From positions 1 to 64,000 of the forward strand of contig JBIKVS010000002.1 of the NCBI GenBank assembly GCA_044356725.1: a DNA stretch of 64,000 nt, given 5' to 3'. The stretch is from Minisyncoccia bacterium (GTDB taxonomy: Bacteria; Patescibacteriota; Minisyncoccia; SW-4-49-11). This document shows positions 2,537 through 62,327 of this stretch, piece by piece (within the stretch, counting starts at the first letter, position 1; the number at the start of each line of letters is the position of its first letter). Made by a program: the position numbers and the translations under genes. The notes below the pieces were generated by a model that was not told the origin of the DNA, ran no database searches, and saw nothing but the letters and a program-made list of their open reading frames with translations.

Positions 2537-3286
2537 ATGAAAAATCCAATTATATCTATTCGGGACTTAGCTGTAGAGTTTAATAATATTAAAGTATTAG
2601 ACAATATTAATCTTGATATTTATCAAAATGATTTTATTGGTATTGCAGGACCCAATGGAGCTGGTAAATCTACTTTGATTAAGACTTTACTAAATCTGAA
2701 TAACTATACTGGTGAAATTAAACTTTGGGATACCCCTTTAAATAAATTCAAAAACTGGAATTATATAGGTTATTTACCTCAATCTTTAAACCAATATTCG
2801 CATCAATTCCCTGCTACGGTTGAGGAAATAGTATCTTTAGGCTTAATATCATCAATCAAATGGCCTCGTATCTTAGATTCAAAATCTATCAAAAGAGTAA
2901 ATGATATTCTGAATGAACTTGAAATTAATAATCTTGCTAAAACTTCAATTCATGATTTATCTGGAGGACAAAGACAAAGAGTCTGGTTAGCTAAAGCATT
3001 AGTTTCACAACCAAAAGTATTAATTCTGGACGAACCAACCAATGCTCTTGATCCCGAAATCAGAAAAGTATTTTATCAACAGATTACTACATTATATAAA
3101 AAAGGTGTAGCTATTATACTAATAACTCATGATACTAGTGACATAGGAACTTATGCTAGAAAACTACTCTTATTGGATAATAAAGTGATTTTTTGGGGTG
3201 AGTTTAGTGATATTTGCAACTCTAAGGAAATGAGTAATTATTTTGGAGAGGACGCCAAACATCTTATCTGTCATCAACATGAGTAA
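2537..3286 (+). CDS. znuC: Zn ABC transporter ATP-binding protein
   Basis: GPNGAGKST, LSGGQRQR, ILDEPT, ends ICHQHE; start moved to the ATG at 2537. Confidence 0.92.
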   Translation: MKNPIISIRDLAVEFNNIKVLDNINLDIYQNDFIGIAGPNGAGKSTLIKTLLNLNNYTGEIKLWDTPLNKFKNWNYIGYLPQSLNQYSHQFPATVEEIVSLGLISSIKWPRILDSKSIKRVNDILNELEINNLAKTSIHDLSGGQRQRVWLAKALVSQPKVLILDEPTNALDPEIRKVFYQQITTLYKKGVAIILITHDTSDIGTYARKLLLLDNKVIFWGEFSDICNSKEMSNYFGEDAKHLICHQHE

Positions 3287-4097
3287 TTTAATTAATATAT
3301 TACAATATCAATTTATTGAAAGAGCTATTATTGCTGGATTATTCCTAGGAGTTGTCTGTGCTGTGATGGGAGTGTTTCTAGTGTTAAGAAAAATGTCATT
3401 AATTGGAGATGGACTTGCTCATATTAGCTTTGGAGCTATTGCAATAGGGCTTGTATTTGGGTTTTATCCATTAATCATTGCTATTCCCTTAGTCATTATA
3501 GCCTCTTTGATAATATATGCACTAACTCGCAATCATATAATCGAGGGAGATGCCATTATTGGGATCCTAGCCTCTTTGGGTCTTGCTATAGGAGTAATTT
3601 TATCTAGTATTTCAACAGGATTTAATGTAGATATATTTAGCTATTTATTTGGGAATATATTAGCAATTACACAGCAAGAGCTAAGTTTTGTAATTATAGG
3701 ATCTATTGCTATATTATCTATAATCATACTGTTTTATCAAGAATTTATGGCAATATCATTTAACCCTGAACAAGCCAAAATCAGTGGGATTCCTGTCACT
3801 ATATTGGATATTTTATTCTCCATAATCACAGCCATCACTGTTATTATGAGTGTAAAATTAGCAGGGGCTTTGTTAGTCTCAGCCTTGATTATATTACCAG
3901 CCAGTTCCAGCTTACAAGTTTCAAAAAGCTTTCAAAATACAATTCTTTTTGCCATTCTATTTGCATTGATTAGCATCATAATTGGTATAGTTATATCCCT
4001 AATCATTAATATACCAACTGGAGCTACAATTGTTACTGTCAATGCTACAATTTTCTTTTGTATACTTTTAATAAAGTTACTAAAATCTAACCAATAG
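3279..4097 (+). CDS. znuB: Zn ABC transporter permease
   Basis: ABC-3 motifs GDGLAH and SYLFGNILAI; multiple TM helices; ATG at 3279. Confidence 0.92.
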   Translation: MSNLINILQYQFIERAIIAGLFLGVVCAVMGVFLVLRKMSLIGDGLAHISFGAIAIGLVFGFYPLIIAIPLVIIASLIIYALTRNHIIEGDAIIGILASLGLAIGVILSSISTGFNVDIFSYLFGNILAITQQELSFVIIGSIAILSIIILFYQEFMAISFNPEQAKISGIPVTILDILFSIITAITVIMSVKLAGALLVSALIILPASSSLQVSKSFQNTILFAILFALISIIIGIVISLIINIPTGATIVTVNATIFFCILLIKLLKSNQ

Positions 4098-5232
4098 GAA
4101 TATGCAGGGTAAACATAGTGCCCTCCCCCTCTTTTGATTGTACCTGAATAGTTCCATTATGTAACTCTATAATAGCCTTTGTCAAAGTTAACCCAAGCCC
4201 CCTACCACCAGTATGTTTTGATCTAGAAGAGTCAACTCTATAAAATTTATCAAAAATCCTGTGAATCAAATGTTCAGGAATTCCAATACCATTATCTCTA
4301 ATATACATTGTAAAAAACTTTTTATGGATTTTCGTCTCAACTTCAATGTCACTACCGTCTGTAGAGTATTTAATAGCATTCTCTATAATATTCTCTACCG
4401 CTTGAGTAATTAGAATTGGCACTAGCTCTATTTTTTTATCCAAATTCTTACCTTTGAGTACAATATTTATATTTTTTTGTTTAGCTTTAGCGTTAATATT
4501 ATTTAGAATAGTATCTAAAATAGATTGTATACTTACAGATTCAAACTGTAAATGCTCTTTAGATAAAGATAAAAGAGATAAATCATTAATTAAATCATTC
4601 AAATAGTCAACTTTACTCTGAATCTCTTGCAATAATTTTATATTTTCTTTAGCTAACTTATTATCAGTTAAAATCAAATCTGTCTTTGCCATTATAACTG
4701 AAAGTGGGGTTTTGAGCTCATGAGAGGCATATTCTATAAACTCTCTTTGAGAACGAAAACTTTTACCTAATCTTAAAAGCATTTCATTAATAGAAGATAT
4801 CAACTCTTGTAGCTCCTCATCAATATGGGGATATGATATTTTCTCCATTGACTCTGCCTGTATCGCTTTAATCTGTTTATTAATATCTTTAATCGGACTT
4901 AGAACTTGAGCCGAAATAGCATTACCACCCACCAAAGATAATGCCACCAAAATAGCAAAAATAAAAAATGAACTTCTCCTAATTGTAGATAAATCACTTT
5001 GTCTAATATCCCGAATAACTTCAATAAATTTATCATGAGGAAAAGAAGCATCTCTTAATTCAGAAAAAACCGTACTATACCGAGACAATCCATCTAAACC
5101 TAGCTCGGTTCTCTCATAATATCTAACTGCCAACACATTAACTGTAATAATTATAATCAAACTCAATAACACAAAAAGCCCTGTATAATACAGAGTTAAT
5201 CTAAATTGTAAAGTATGAATATACTTGAACAT
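4087..5232 (-). CDS. HAMP-containing sensor histidine kinase
   Basis: Two TM helices, ASHELKTPL H-box, NAIKYS, DNGIGI, GRGLGL. Confidence 0.93.
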   Translation of the reverse strand: MFKYIHTLQFRLTLYYTGLFVLLSLIIIITVNVLAVRYYERTELGLDGLSRYSTVFSELRDASFPHDKFIEVIRDIRQSDLSTIRRSSFFIFAILVALSLVGGNAISAQVLSPIKDINKQIKAIQAESMEKISYPHIDEELQELISSINEMLLRLGKSFRSQREFIEYASHELKTPLSVIMAKTDLILTDNKLAKENIKLLQEIQSKVDYLNDLINDLSLLSLSKEHLQFESVSIQSILDTILNNINAKAKQKNINIVLKGKNLDKKIELVPILITQAVENIIENAIKYSTDGSDIEVETKIHKKFFTMYIRDNGIGIPEHLIHRIFDKFYRVDSSRSKHTGGRGLGLTLTKAIIELHNGTIQVQSKEGEGTMFTLHIPIG

Positions 5233-58238: not shown

Positions 58239-59564
58239 TTATTTACTTTTTGAAATAATGTCTTTAGCAAGATATGGTCTTAATACCTTAGGGATTACAA
58301 TACTACCATCAGCTTGCTGATAGTTTTCCATAATCGCAATTATAATTCTACCGATAGCAAAGACAGTAGCATCATTCATATGTACAAAATTCTTTTTGCC
58401 ATCGACATCTCTGTATCTGGTCTGCAATCTACGAGCTTGGAAATCTCCCATATAATCTGAAGTATGCGTTTCACGATATTGATTTTGTCCAGGTAGCCAA
58501 GTTTCTATATCATAAGCTCTTATATCTGGAGTTCCCATATCAGCAGTACATTTTAGTACCACCTGATAAGGTAATTCTAATTGTTGCATAAGATATTCTT
58601 GAATAGCTACAATCAAATCTTGTTCTGCAAACCCTGAGTCCTTATCACTAAATACTTCAATTTCAATTTTATCAAATTGATGTAATCTCAAAATACCCTT
58701 CATATCCTTACCATAAGTACCAGCTTCTCGTCTAAAAGCAGTTGAATACCCCACATATCTAAGAGGTAGTTGTTTATAATCTAAAATTTCATCCATATGA
58801 AGTGGTCCCAAAGTATGCTCAGCACTACCAACCAACATCAATCCATCCTCAGTAGTCTGATACCTATCATCAATTGGATCAAGCCTTCCCATTCTCTTCA
58901 TAACTTCTGCCTTCATCAAAACTGGGGGAACAACAGGGGTATAGGCTTTATAAGATATATTTCCAAGCCCTGATTTATGAATAATTGCTTGAATAGTATT
59001 ACTGTCTTTGAGTGTAGATAACACCCATTGCACTAAAGCAAATTGCAAAAGCACTAAATCTCCTTTTAGATAAGCAAATCTTGCCCCCGAGACTTCGGCT
59101 GACTTTTCAGTATCAATTAAATCCAAAGTTTTACCCAATTGCCAATGTTCCAAAGGAGTAAAGCTAAAGACTGGCTTTTCCCCAACTTGTCTTAATACCA
59201 CATTCTCATCCTCAGACAATCCAATTGGAGTATCATCTGAATAAGTATTAGGAATTTTATACATTAAGTCACTATAAATCTCATCAACTTTCACAAAATC
59301 TAAATCTAGCTGAGATAATTTATCTTTAATATCTTTACCTTTTTGAATTAAAGCCTTTTTCTCATCATCTGTAAGAGTAGACATTTGCTTCATTTGCTCA
59401 GCAATAGAGTTTTTGTCAGTCCTCAAACTTTCAATTCTTTGTAATAAACCCTGCCTTTCCTCAAATACAGACATCAGATAATCTATATCTACTACTACTT
59501 TTTTATTCTTTGCAACTTCAATCAGAAAATCTCGATTGGCTTTAATATAAGATATATCTAACAT
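58239..59564 (-). CDS. serS: Seryl-tRNA synthetase
   Basis: MLDI, FRREAG, RLHQFDK.E, DFQARRL. Confidence 0.97.
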   Translation of the reverse strand: MLDISYIKANRDFLIEVAKNKKVVVDIDYLMSVFEERQGLLQRIESLRTDKNSIAEQMKQMSTLTDDEKKALIQKGKDIKDKLSQLDLDFVKVDEIYSDLMYKIPNTYSDDTPIGLSEDENVVLRQVGEKPVFSFTPLEHWQLGKTLDLIDTEKSAEVSGARFAYLKGDLVLLQFALVQWVLSTLKDSNTIQAIIHKSGLGNISYKAYTPVVPPVLMKAEVMKRMGRLDPIDDRYQTTEDGLMLVGSAEHTLGPLHMDEILDYKQLPLRYVGYSTAFRREAGTYGKDMKGILRLHQFDKIEIEVFSDKDSGFAEQDLIVAIQEYLMQQLELPYQVVLKCTADMGTPDIRAYDIETWLPGQNQYRETHTSDYMGDFQARRLQTRYRDVDGKKNFVHMNDATVFAIGRIIIAIMENYQQADGSIVIPKVLRPYLAKDIISKSK

Positions 59565-59664
59565 ATTTATGCATAATTTTATATAATATTAAGTATATCA
59601 CAGCTAAGCTATACACTCAACACAAATTATATGATATAATGAGACATATTATTAAGTAATAAAA

Positions 59665-61989
59665 ATGAAAATAAGAATTAATAAAGGTTTTTCACTCCTA
59701 GAAATACTCTTAGTAATAACATTATTGTCTATATTGTTTACTATATTAGTGGTGAGAATAAATCCTCGAAATATAGTTTATATATCAGAAGACAATAAAA
59801 GAGAGGCTGATGCATTGACAATTTATCAAGCCTTAGAGCAATATGCTATCAAGAATAATGCCTATCCAGAGAGTATAAAGAATATGCCTAATAATAGTTC
59901 AGCTTATATCTGTAAAACCTCCGCCCCAAATTGCCAAGCCCCAAAAATAAATTTATCTTCCATACTAGTACCAACATATTTCTCTAAAATTCCAGAATAT
60001 TCTACAGATAATACTAATAGTGGGTTTTATGTAATTAAAGATATTAATGGTAAAATTGGAGTTGGAGGAGTAAGACAATTAGACGAGACGACCTTTGTCA
60101 AAGGATTGGAGAGTCAAAGTTTTGCGACGATTCCAAATCAACCATCAAAGTTAGCTGTAACCTCCTGTACATATGCGAATAAAAAAATAAGTATACCCTA
60201 TACAGCAGGAGAAGTAGGCTATAATTATGCTAGTCAAACAATTAACTCCACGGGAGTAACCGGATTAACAGCAACATTATTAGGAGATGAACCTCTCGCA
60301 ACAGGAGGCACCGTCATAGATAGTGGAGGTTTCCGCTATCACGTCTTTACGAGTAGCGGAACATTTAATGTAACAACTACCAACCAGATGACTGTTGTTC
60401 TTGTCGGCGGTGGGGGTGGCGGTGGTGGTGGACACGCTAATGCAGGTGCAGGTGCAGGTGCGGGCGGTAAACTTGTCACACTTGCTGAATCTATTCCATC
60501 AGGCTCATTTAACATTGTTATCGGTGACGCCGGAGGCGGAGGAGCAAATGGTGTCGCCGGGAATAACGGCCAAGCGTCAACAGGATTCAGTTATACGGCT
60601 ACCGGTGGACAGGGCGGAGGATCGGGTTGGATCGGAGATTCACGAAATGGCCAAGGTGGGACTACGGGTGGTTCTGCGGGTGGGGCCAGTGGTCTTGCAG
60701 GAAGCCAAGGTGGTGCAAACGGTGGCGGATGGGATGACGGAGCAGAGGTTCTTAATTCGTTTATCGGCAACGGTGCCGGCGGAGCAGATGTAGGTGGTAC
60801 TTATTCTGGTGGAGGCGGCGGAGGTGGTGTTACGGTATCACTTTCCAGTGTGGCGGCGATAAATGGCACCATAGGTTCAAATGCGGTCAAGTACTACACA
60901 GAAAATGCAGGCCCTGGCGGAGCTGGGTATGGGGCTGGCGGTGGAGGTGCATCTGGACCGAATGCCGGGGGTGCAGGAGCAAAAGGGATTGTCATAGTGA
61001 GGTATCAATTAGCAACAGGAGGTAACTTAGCTACCAGTGGACTTCTAGAATATACAGTCACAGGGACTCCTAGTGGAGTAGGAACCGCTAATTTTGATCT
61101 TAGCAATATTGGTAATATGGGAGTTGGTTGTAATAATAGTAATATAGCGGTTAATGTGACAGGAACTCTCGCAACAGGAGGAGATACTACAACAGATATA
61201 ACAGTAGGAGCCGATACATATAGAGTACACACATTTACAACCGTCGGTACATCTAGTTTGAATGTAACACAAGGTGGAGAGTTTGAATATCTAGTAGTTG
61301 GTGGAGGCGGTGCTGGAGGTCCTACATATCATGGCGCCGGGGGAGGAGCAGGGGGATATCGTTCTTCAGTGATAGGAGAAATGTCTGGTGGAGGAAGTAT
61401 GGCAGAGCCAAGTTTAACTATAAATAGTGGATCCTATCAAGTTACGGTTGGAGCTGGTGGAATTGGAGGAGTGAATAATGGTAATGGCGTAAATTCAACA
61501 TTTTCTAATATAATAGCACTAGGTGGTGGAGGCGGTAATGGCAGAACTGGAGGATCAGGGTCAGGTACTTCTTACGGTTCCTCAGGTGTTAGTGTTGGTT
61601 TAGGAACTGCTAGCCAAGGATATAATGGTGGTACGGGACTTATGACATCTGCTGCACCTAATTATGGCTCAGGTGGTGGTGGTGGTGCCGGAGGAGTAGG
61701 CCAAACAGGGACATCTACTTCTGGTGGAAATGGAGGTATAGGTTTAACCTCATCAATTAATGGGACTCCGATGACACGTGCAGGTGGTGGTGGTGGATCT
61801 ACATATAATGGGGGCTCCCCAGGACAAGGTATTGCTGGCGGTGGAAATGGAAGTAACGGACAAGGTACATCTGCAGCATTAAACTCTGGAAGTGGAGGTG
61901 GAGGATCTGAACGATCTGCTGGAATAATTCAAGGTGGCTCCGGTGGTTCCGGCATCGTAATCGTGAGGTATAAGTTATTTGACTATTGA
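59665..61989 (+). CDS. Type IV pilin head fused to two glycine-rich adhesin-like modules
   Basis: KGFSLLEILLVI, ICKTSAPNC...LVPTYFSKIP; two modules LATGG...YR.H.FT..GT...GGGGGG...GIVIVRY. Confidence 0.9.
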   Translation: MKIRINKGFSLLEILLVITLLSILFTILVVRINPRNIVYISEDNKREADALTIYQALEQYAIKNNAYPESIKNMPNNSSAYICKTSAPNCQAPKINLSSILVPTYFSKIPEYSTDNTNSGFYVIKDINGKIGVGGVRQLDETTFVKGLESQSFATIPNQPSKLAVTSCTYANKKISIPYTAGEVGYNYASQTINSTGVTGLTATLLGDEPLATGGTVIDSGGFRYHVFTSSGTFNVTTTNQMTVVLVGGGGGGGGGHANAGAGAGAGGKLVTLAESIPSGSFNIVIGDAGGGGANGVAGNNGQASTGFSYTATGGQGGGSGWIGDSRNGQGGTTGGSAGGASGLAGSQGGANGGGWDDGAEVLNSFIGNGAGGADVGGTYSGGGGGGGVTVSLSSVAAINGTIGSNAVKYYTENAGPGGAGYGAGGGGASGPNAGGAGAKGIVIVRYQLATGGNLATSGLLEYTVTGTPSGVGTANFDLSNIGNMGVGCNNSNIAVNVTGTLATGGDTTTDITVGADTYRVHTFTTVGTSSLNVTQGGEFEYLVVGGGGAGGPTYHGAGGGAGGYRSSVIGEMSGGGSMAEPSLTINSGSYQVTVGAGGIGGVNNGNGVNSTFSNIIALGGGGGNGRTGGSGSGTSYGSSGVSVGLGTASQGYNGGTGLMTSAAPNYGSGGGGGAGGVGQTGTSTSGGNGGIGLTSSINGTPMTRAGGGGGSTYNGGSPGQGIAGGGNGSNGQGTSAALNSGSGGGGSERSAGIIQGGSGGSGIVIVRYKLFDY

Positions 61990-62204
61990 TTCTATATTAA
62001 GTGTACTAATTCATAAAGTTAATAAACATATCGACATAGTATTTTAGCACTTTGAGTTCCTGGACTCCTTGATGGGAGGTGGAACCGTAGGTGTCGTAAG
62101 AGTGCAGATTTAAATTTCCCTCTATTCCTTAACTTAATAAAAAAATAAAGTCACCCGTAGTAGAAAAAATGTTTTCCCCTACCCCCTCCCTGTCCGTTCC
62201 CAAC

Positions 62205-62242
62205 ATAAAAATAATCCCCAAGTTTTTGGGGATTATTTTTAT
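62205..62242 (-). terminator. Terminator after tRNA-Leu
   Basis: ataaaaataatcccca-...-tggggattatttttat. Confidence 0.75.
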
Positions 62243-62244
62243 TG

Positions 62245-62327
62245 TGCTGGTGAACGGACTTGAACCGTTACGGAGTTGCCTCCAAAGGATTTTGAGTCCT
62301 TCGTGTCTACCATTCCACCACACCAGC
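62245..62327 (-). tRNA. tRNA-Leu(CAA)
   Basis: GCTGGTG/CACCAGC acceptor, loop CT-CAA-AA, long variable arm. Confidence 0.95.

Follow-up and report, generated by a model that had tools for sequence, protein, structure and literature searches.

A probable modular tip pilin with exchangeable cargo domains, one of them nested, in an ultra-small bacterium

The stretch of DNA analyzed here (the window) comprises the first 64,000 nucleotides of contig JBIKVS010000002.1 (assembly GCA_044356725.1), from a lake bacterium with an ultra-small genome that appears to belong to the Patescibacteria, or candidate phyla radiation (CPR). A single open reading frame (ORF) in this window encodes a protein of 774 residues, P0001, whose pilin module, at the N terminus, is followed by further domains, its cargo. 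With a probability of roughly 0.8, we read P0001 as a modular tip pilin with exchangeable cargo, i.e., a split repeat domain with a Gly_rich_2 domain nested within it (slot 1) and a C-terminal module (slot 2), which are shuffled by ordinary recombination. The evidence comes from the domain structure of the protein, the contents of the slots in close relatives, and the recombination tracts that could be mapped around and within the cargo. Coordinates of the features are collected in Table 1.

A complete domain is nested within a repeat domain

The original prediction had proposed that a 732-bp cassette interrupts a domain of this protein in frame. The insert (244 codons) did prove to be a complete PF21722 (Gly_rich_2) domain, module 1, which when searched alone matched the entire profile (1-226 of 226; E=1.4e-13, 51.8 bits). 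P0001 as a whole scored 101.1 bits against PF21722 (cut-off 24.3) in two stretches, the second corresponding to the C-terminal module 2. The insert is flanked by one conserved cysteine on each side (SCTY and GVGC), and its flanks, i.e., the segment ending in STGVTGLTATL and the segment extending from ATGGNLATSGLLEYTVTGTPSGVGTANF to GVGCNNSNIAVNVTGT, are the two halves of a repeat domain of ~90 residues, both being present, in order, and similar to contiguous copies. Using blastn, window positions 60160-60279 and 61014-61162 matched directly adjoining DNA (1394-1513 and 1513-1661) on contig C8 of a related genome, G005, in which the slot is empty. The ends of the insert are therefore fixed to within 2-3 nt of where they had first been placed. 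The domain is also contiguous in the proteins P0005, P0007 and P0009 and, at the DNA level, in locus L143.

The rejoined sequence had been taken for a contiguous unit of Bacteroidota surface proteins, and such a unit exists. A degenerate DNA pattern for TGVTGLTATL matched at least 120 stretches in species-representative genomes, and nearly all of the listed titles were Bacteroidota. The second half (..L.Y.ITGTP..GTA.F..C) followed ~10-25 residues past GLTATL in all but one of 60 translated instances, often in tandem arrays; the single exception was an Actinomycetota match in an unrelated context. The contiguous domain from contig C8 of G005 aligned with a copy from Chryseobacterium (BLASTP E=7e-14), and the alignment ran across the slot. 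An exhaustive search with the contiguous copy of a relative reached 888 library representatives at E<=1e-3. In 149 of the top 150, the best match crossed the slot position, P0004 alone being split, and a check by regular expression likewise found 1 nested case in 150. The slot falls in a stretch of variable length, where one Bacteroidota copy (L027) is ~12 residues longer.

Proteins as long as ~2,800 residues (e.g., L044, L030 and L079) carry the host repeat domain in tandem, with up to 15 copies per array. It looks like an undescribed, widespread repeat of surface proteins.

P0001 has the hallmarks of a modular type IV pilin

P0001 begins with a short leader that ends in glycine, followed by a hydrophobic helix with glutamate at +5 (GFxxxE), as in type IV pilins. 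The match to PF07963 was marginal (21.4 bits against a cut-off of 21.2), and TIGR02532, the NCBIfam model of the GFxxxE pilin domain, scored 22.9 bits against a cut-off of 16.3. The genome encodes a prepilin peptidase (PF01478, 49.9 bits, on its contig C8), has five matches above cut-off to the assembly ATPase T2SSE (PF00437), and carries many pilin paralogues; several own-genome tblastn matches covered residues 2-133 of the pilin module, which was also matched in 53 of 61 related genomes. The combination of an N_methyl domain with two PF21722 domains, replaced in part by PF13385 in relatives, is that of a modular pilin. P0001 is too large for a major pilin. It agrees with the concept of modular pilins as tip-displayed adhesins, and by analogy its most likely role is that of a tip or minor pilin of low abundance.

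The N-terminal part of the gene (59665-60162) is itself divergent. Compared with L141, a syntenic locus on a 285-kb contig, it had 77% nucleotide identity, a dN of 0.19 and a dN/dS of ~0.24, the neighboring genes having a dN of 0.07-0.13. This suggests that the pilin module is under fast evolution or allele replacement.

Slots are filled, empty or swapped in close relatives

Comparison of strains had been put forward as a check, and it was informative, with relatives in near-identical backgrounds having slot 1 either empty or holding other modules. Slot 1 is empty in P0005, P0007, P0009 and contig C8 of G005, and is filled with other Gly_rich_2 modules in P0003, P0004, P0006 and P0010. Slot 2 holds a Gly_rich_2 module in P0001, P0002, P0006 and P0007, and a LamG domain in P0003, P0004, P0005, P0009 and P0010. 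P0003 and P0004 agree in every one of residues 1-203 and of the 124 residues that follow the nested module, whereas their modules are only 58% identical, and their LamG cores likewise. Between P0004 (filled) and P0005 (empty), the flanks are 98% identical. (For the segment identities among P0003-P0005, the second half-domain was cut nine residues short; a scan of metagenomes yielded five loci, P0003 not being among them.) Outside its orthologues, module 2 is closest to the slot-1 module of P0003 (68% identity), so that one module type can occupy either slot. The closest non-orthologous relatives of module 1 are P0013 and P0122.

These results bear on a very improbable alternative, namely that there was no recent exchange at all: an old insertion would have been passed on vertically, slippage at glycine codons would have made the modules diverge where they stand, and the likeness of their boundaries would reflect amino acid constraint alone. 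It is true that the glycine-rich interiors are full of short repeats, that the orthologue P0002 retains the same architecture at 90% identity, and that the ATGG start and IVIVRY end of the modules are features of the whole family, occurring also in a protein from a phage contig and in P0013, P0122 and P0123, which are not pilins. However, in-place divergence does not account for modules that are 58% identical between identical flanks, nor for filled and empty slots in 98% identical backgrounds.

The codon usage of module 1 also argues against it. As the original prediction had noted from its GGC, GCC and ACG codons, the insert differs from its flanks: the G+C fraction at third codon positions (GC3) was 86/244 = 0.352, compared with 107/530 = 0.202 for the rest of the gene (Fisher p = 1.1e-5). 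When glycine codons were left out, module 1 still differed from module 2 (0.368 versus 0.191, p = 2.8e-4). The GC3 of the long ORFs of the genome was 0.226, and that of other modules 0.165-0.29. Modules 1 and 2 could barely be aligned with each other (E=60 by BLASTP with composition adjustment; 33% identity by tblastn without it), and it is by their Pfam matches that they would be distant members of one family.

In a different frame, an ORF of 132 residues (60395-60793, + strand) overlaps module 1. It is most likely a by-product of GC-rich glycine codons and no gene.

The whole cargo lies in a recent recombination tract

Within the window, the region around the gene is syntenic with L141 at 83-85% identity, rising to ~96% across a low-divergence tract that contains the whole cargo. 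The edges of this tract are sharp and lie in the first codons of the split domain (~60165) and ~130 nt past the stop codon (~62115). Synonymous divergence followed the same pattern. For the cargo (60163-61986), dS against L141 was 0.078, with values of 0.036 for the first half-domain, 0.052 for module 1, 0.026 for the second half-domain and 0.117 for module 2. By contrast, dS was 0.77 for the pilin N terminus and 0.78, 1.60, 0.83 and 0.77 for four neighboring genes. Since the cargo is so much less diverged than the flanking genes, it moved as a whole between the two lineages long after they separated, and the tract marks a recent recombinational transfer of the entire cargo.

A second pair of loci, L142 and L143, has a different breakpoint. 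Their DNA matches at 98.1% for 427 nt, and this match stops exactly with the last codon of the split domain. Beyond it the two loci lack homology, one having a LamG and the other a Gly_rich_2 module, and identity returns at 88.5% downstream. This abrupt switch from 98% identity to no homology, and a tenfold drop in dS that is limited to the cargo, do not agree with vertical descent and in-place divergence; that reading is already contradicted by the swaps, the tracts and the codon usage. What produces these combinations is recombination, between lineages as well as between paralogous pilin genes, and the breakpoints fall at domain borders or close to them, where the DNA is conserved.

A further near-identical tract between the window and L141 was seen at 59390-59600 (0-2 mismatches per 30 nt, the flanks differing by 15-25%). 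It takes in the 5' end of the divergently transcribed gene for seryl-tRNA synthetase together with some of the intergenic region. Either a further recombination tract or strong conservation of the promoter and 5' region could account for it.

The architecture is not explained by misassembly

Long-read evidence of misassembly had been named as an outcome that would undo the prediction. It is barely conceivable that the insert and the mosaic pattern arose because metagenomic contigs were misjoined at repeats of glycine codons. The source genome was assembled from a metagenome, such repeats do draw spurious short joins (many contig joints with sides of 21-24 letters were of this kind), and two copies of the domain in the related genome G002 lie at contig ends. 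On the other hand, the reading frame is open across both insert junctions, and two independent contigs, from runs X6 and X10, matched the window without a single difference over 59477-61500 and 60268-62179, respectively (these runs may be related to the sample series of the source). In addition, L141, which is from another collection, and the X18 contig have the same architecture at about 94-96% identity, and five further proteins have a filled slot with the same junction sequences.

The two copies in G002, both of the first half-domain, are at C27:61-177 and C24:58241-58297 (L148 and L152). Assemblies appear to break at multi-copy cargo sequences, and copy numbers and slot states are consequently under-counted.

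Junction sequences are conserved beyond amino acid constraint

The original prediction had drawn attention to sequences held in common by the two module starts and ends. The 16-mer CTCTCGCAACAGGAGG is present exactly at 60293 and 61166, and a third, partial copy, the 11-mer GCAACAGGAGG, is present at 61012-61022. In the whole 897-kb genome the 16-mer occurs twice and the 11-mer three times (0.08 expected), all within the P0001 gene. Both modules end in GTGAGGTAT.A.TTA (at 60997 and 61963), as had been reported. The TTA at both junctions of the insert (60277-60279 and 61009-61011) is also real, the letters in common being in fact ATTA, but this repeat is not significant, because TTA makes up 47% of leucine codons.

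Similar junctions occur in relatives that carry other modules. The left junction, TTA TTA GGA GAT G.. CCT ... GCA ACA GGA GG, is common to the window, contig C7 of G002 and contig C58 of G005, and in the latter two the linker DNA (TTA GGA GAT G.. CCT ... GCA ACA GGA GG) precedes a different module type. The right junction reads GTG AGG TAT in the window and in contig C58, and GTG AGG TAC in contig C7; its continuation (... TTA GCA ACA GGA GGT) is common to the window and contig C58 only. Homology to both contigs by blastn ended at ~60322 and restarted at 60997, the window holding a different module type, and the type-specific core of module 1 is thus about 60323-60996. Module 2 has a conserved 5' "handle" of ~145 nt, with 61166-61310 having 83-85% DNA identity to the modules in slot 1 of the same two contigs.

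Amino acid constraint as the sole source of these identities had been named as a refutation. It accounts for part of them, since ATGG and IVIVRY are family-wide features, but not for all. With the amino acids fixed and codons chosen independently, p for identity over the 16-mer was ~0.005, and a fourth, internal ATGG of module 1 is encoded by other codons (GCT ACC GGT). Codon identity at the junctions exceeds what amino acid constraint would produce.

Exchange is better explained by ordinary recombination than by a dedicated system

The idea that adhesin modules are exchanged as cassettes by recombination held at the evolutionary and population scale, where the swaps and tracts lie, but not as a dedicated mechanism acting at the 16-mers, since the tract ends lie elsewhere. 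We consider it quite improbable that cassettes are frequently exchanged or deleted within a lineage at their short ends (the 16-mers and GTGAGGTAT) in the manner of shufflons or pilE/pilS. What speaks for such a system is the placement of the repeats, i.e., the 16-mer solely at the two module starts and the 11-mer solely at domain junctions of the gene, their identity beyond that expected from the amino acids, the same junction codons in G002 and G005 but not at the internal ATGG, and the fact that homology to other slot-1 modules stops and restarts just inside the conserved ends. However, the mapped tracts end elsewhere, at ~60165, at ~62115 and, in L142/L143, exactly at the end of the split domain. 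Stretches of 11-16 nt are also short for RecA-dependent exchange.

Nor did the genome (20 contigs, 33% GC, 99% complete) provide the machinery. No recombinase or reverse transcriptase (RT) had been visible locally; we found no match to PF00078 (RT) in the genome, and no resolvase or invertase. A single tyrosine recombinase is encoded on another contig, and the neighboring genes scanned include no site-specific recombinase. The genes around P0001 are housekeeping genes, and the border repeats are direct rather than inverted. A tblastn search of the genome with all four segments found no silent donor cassettes and no second copy of the split domain, the remaining glycine-rich matches lying in other pilin genes at ~30-38% identity.

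The deletion products expected of such a system were also missing. The original prediction had suggested that recombination between the 16-mers would delete 873 bp (61166-60293 = 873 = 3 x 291). Such a deletion is indeed in frame, but with it the split domain would lose its second half, giving a form that no relative has. Loss of 714 nt between the 11-mers would leave behind a scar of six residues, LGDEPL, which the empty relatives lack. The predicted empty allele (a 21-mer) was absent from the source genome, and contigs of four runs contained no deletion joint of 732 nt (60279/61012), 714 nt (between the 11-mers) or 873 nt (between the 16-mers), although contigs miss rare variants. Parts of the gene that were uncovered in X10 and X14 were not counted as evidence.

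One joint in the X18 contig (60248->61020, with 36 letters between) was considered as an empty allele and rejected. Its loose end resembles the sequence upstream of P0007, and it belongs to a P0007-type paralogue in which the slot is natively empty.

Other classes of variable element were considered and set aside. A diversity-generating retroelement (DGR) was rejected because there is no RT and because the modules differ by insertions, deletions and replacement of whole segments; switching by a shufflon or invertase, because the repeats are direct and no invertase was found; and an intein-like element, because no splicing motif was seen on inspection. Programmed variation of the pilE/pilS type involves silent partial donor copies, of which the genome has none.

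Ordinary recombination could proceed as follows. Cargo would be exchanged by homologous recombination on DNA taken up from relatives, the genome encoding RecA, ComEC and type IV pilus genes. At the conserved ATGG-start and IVIVRY-end sequences, rarer events based on short homology may first have placed a module within the loop of the repeat domain, and a later event of the same kind may have replaced the resident module by the GC3-richer module 1. The short identities are likely to be conserved linker DNA and crossover sites of such rare events, rather than sites of a dedicated system.

Several points weigh against a modular tip pilin with exchangeable cargo. Codon-level constraint could in principle lower the dS of the cargo; it is inadequate here, because the tenfold drop has sharp edges and runs ~130 nt past the stop codon. 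DNA uptake followed by homologous recombination is suggested by gene content. A GC3 of 0.35 for module 1 is no more than a moderate shift. P0003 and P0005 were compared at the protein level only, the proteins compared are kin rather than independent samples, and relatives are few, the split-domain form occurring in 3 of the 17 family genomes, all of one genus, with one to three copies each. The host domain has no matching Pfam or NCBIfam model, and its description as Ig-like, with the slot in a loop and the termini adjacent, is a prediction from alignments. Finally, a family search of the whole source genome for PF21722 gave no matches, compared with two domains by hmmscan; we read this zero as insensitivity to a low-complexity family and do not trust the negatives of that search.

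Discussion

Ultra-small bacteria like this one are thought to rely on pili to find and hold other cells. By analogy with other modular pilins, P0001 may function in adhesion or host recognition, in which case module turnover would change binding specificity, and the modules are likely to be specificity determinants under diversifying pressure. Whole parts of this protein have recently been transferred between lineages with 15-20% DNA divergence in their other genes, and the modules are tied to a domain class that is abundant in phage proteins. The naturally occurring filled, empty and swapped alleles could be used in binding experiments.

The arrangement recalls mosaic tail-fiber and receptor-binding proteins of phages, which have conserved proximal "handles" and variable distal parts and are exchanged at module borders. 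Gly_rich_2 modules are common in phage proteins, and here too handles flank variable parts. Unlike tail fibers, however, the carrier here is a cellular pilin in a housekeeping neighborhood rather than a virion protein. It also recalls Neisseria pilE/pilS, where a pilin gene is diversified by gene conversion and conserved sequence flanks variable cassettes, as it does in the recombining pilin gene described here. In the present case, however, there are no silent donors, the units of exchange are whole domains, not mini-cassettes of the pilin head, and variation is seen between genomes, not within a clone.

The connection to phage proteins was also apparent when the modules were searched. The structural neighbors of module 2 in the Atlas (TM 0.89-0.92) were all Gly_rich_2 clusters labeled viral, and both modules matched phrog_2295. 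A viral scan with module 1 returned one locus, in which the match was limited to residues 5-54. Solved structures, searched by sequence, gave weak matches to the pilin N terminus (E 0.05-0.13) and nothing for the modules.

The viral contig L146 encodes, at 2920-3792, a stand-alone Gly_rich_2 protein of 290 residues with an ATGG..F-R-x-H start and a GIVIIRY end, preceded by small ORFs. The next ORF (3840-4313) has an unrelated N-terminal stretch and then a glycine-rich VVAGGGNG near the end of the locus, and may start a second Gly_rich_2 module.

An unlikely extension would be that the slot and its conserved linker DNA form an evolved "socket," with receptor-binding Gly_rich_2 modules circulating among pilin paralogues, related species and their phages. 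If so, module 1, which differs in codon usage, would have been captured recently, either from a phage or from another foreign protein like P0013 or P0122, and epibiont-like bacteria and their phages would draw host recognition from one common pool of modules.

Among known pilins, P0001 is closest to the modular pilins for which a tip location and a role as adhesins have been proposed, exemplified by two proteins of Streptococcus sanguinis, PilB, which carries a vWA module, and PilC, which carries a lectin module (Raynaud et al., 2021, PMC8179133). Like these, it starts with a pilin module that has a class III signal peptide, and it carries grafted functional modules that are not specific to pili; a pilin module with PF13385 (LamG-like) is among the frequent architectures, with Candidatus phyla among the examples (PMC8179133). 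Unlike the S. sanguinis proteins, P0001 has three extra domains, one of them nested. Its modules differ from one close relative to the next, and recombination tracts could be mapped. In the literature searched, we found no description of Gly_rich_2 as a pilin module, although Dataset S1 of the same study may list one (PMC8179133). A domain inserted within a domain has a precedent in GspK, where an alpha-domain is inserted in the pilin beta-sheet, so that a complete extra domain lies within another domain of a pilin-family protein (PMC8179133). As GspK is described there, the host of the insertion is the pilin fold, whereas here it is a repeat domain of the cargo, and close relatives may have the insert, lack it or carry a replacement.

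Saccharibacteria have two minor pilins with accessory domains, PilX1 and PilX2, the latter being needed for efficient host binding (PMC11623550). P0001 resembles them as a probable patescibacterial minor pilin with a large C-terminal part, but in the sections of that paper at our disposal neither a nested domain nor module exchange is reported for them (PMC11623550).

Feature coordinates and gene neighborhood

Table 1. Features of the P0001 gene and its surroundings (window positions)
Feature	Position	Strand	Remarks
Whole gene, modular type IV pilin-like protein P0001	59665-61989	+	Single ORF; Pfam N_methyl and two Gly_rich_2 stretches
Class III (prepilin) signal and N-terminal methylation motif (..KG/FSLLEILLV..), aa 5-28	59677-59748	+	PF07963, TIGR02532
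Pilin module, aa 1 to ~133	59665-60063	+	Homologous to many paralogous pilins
Split repeat domain (~90 aa), first half (SCTY...STGVTGLTATL), first conserved Cys	60163-60279	+	92-95% identical to copies in G002 and G005
Module 1, complete nested Gly_rich_2 domain, 244 aa	60280-61011	+	PF21722; GC3 0.352
Slot linker LGDEPLATGG, holding 16-mer copy 1 (60293-60308)	60280-60309	+	Linker DNA recurs in G002:C7 and G005:C58
Split repeat domain, second half, second conserved Cys; 11-mer at start	61012-61167	+	Adjoins first half in DNA of G005:C8 and L143
16-mer copy 2, start of module 2	61166-61181	+	Exact copy of 16-mer at 60293
Module 2, C-terminal Gly_rich_2 domain, 273 aa	61168-61986	+	PF21722 at aa 525-770, profile 1-226
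Low-divergence tract in common with L141, containing whole cargo (recent recombinational transfer)	60165-62115	+	0-2 mismatches per 30 nt in most bins inside, 5-15 outside
tRNA-Leu (CAA), context, outside the feature	62244-62327	-	ARAGORN

Upstream of the P0001 gene lie genes for seryl-tRNA synthetase, YibE/F, a DsbA-like protein and a NUDIX protein, and downstream of it those for tRNA-Leu, GtrA and the delta' subunit of DNA polymerase III. The segment between the gene and tRNA-Leu (62141-62244) had no homology to L141 (27% identity in that bin), and in the X18 contig it was replaced by 34 other letters that resemble a hairpin terminator.

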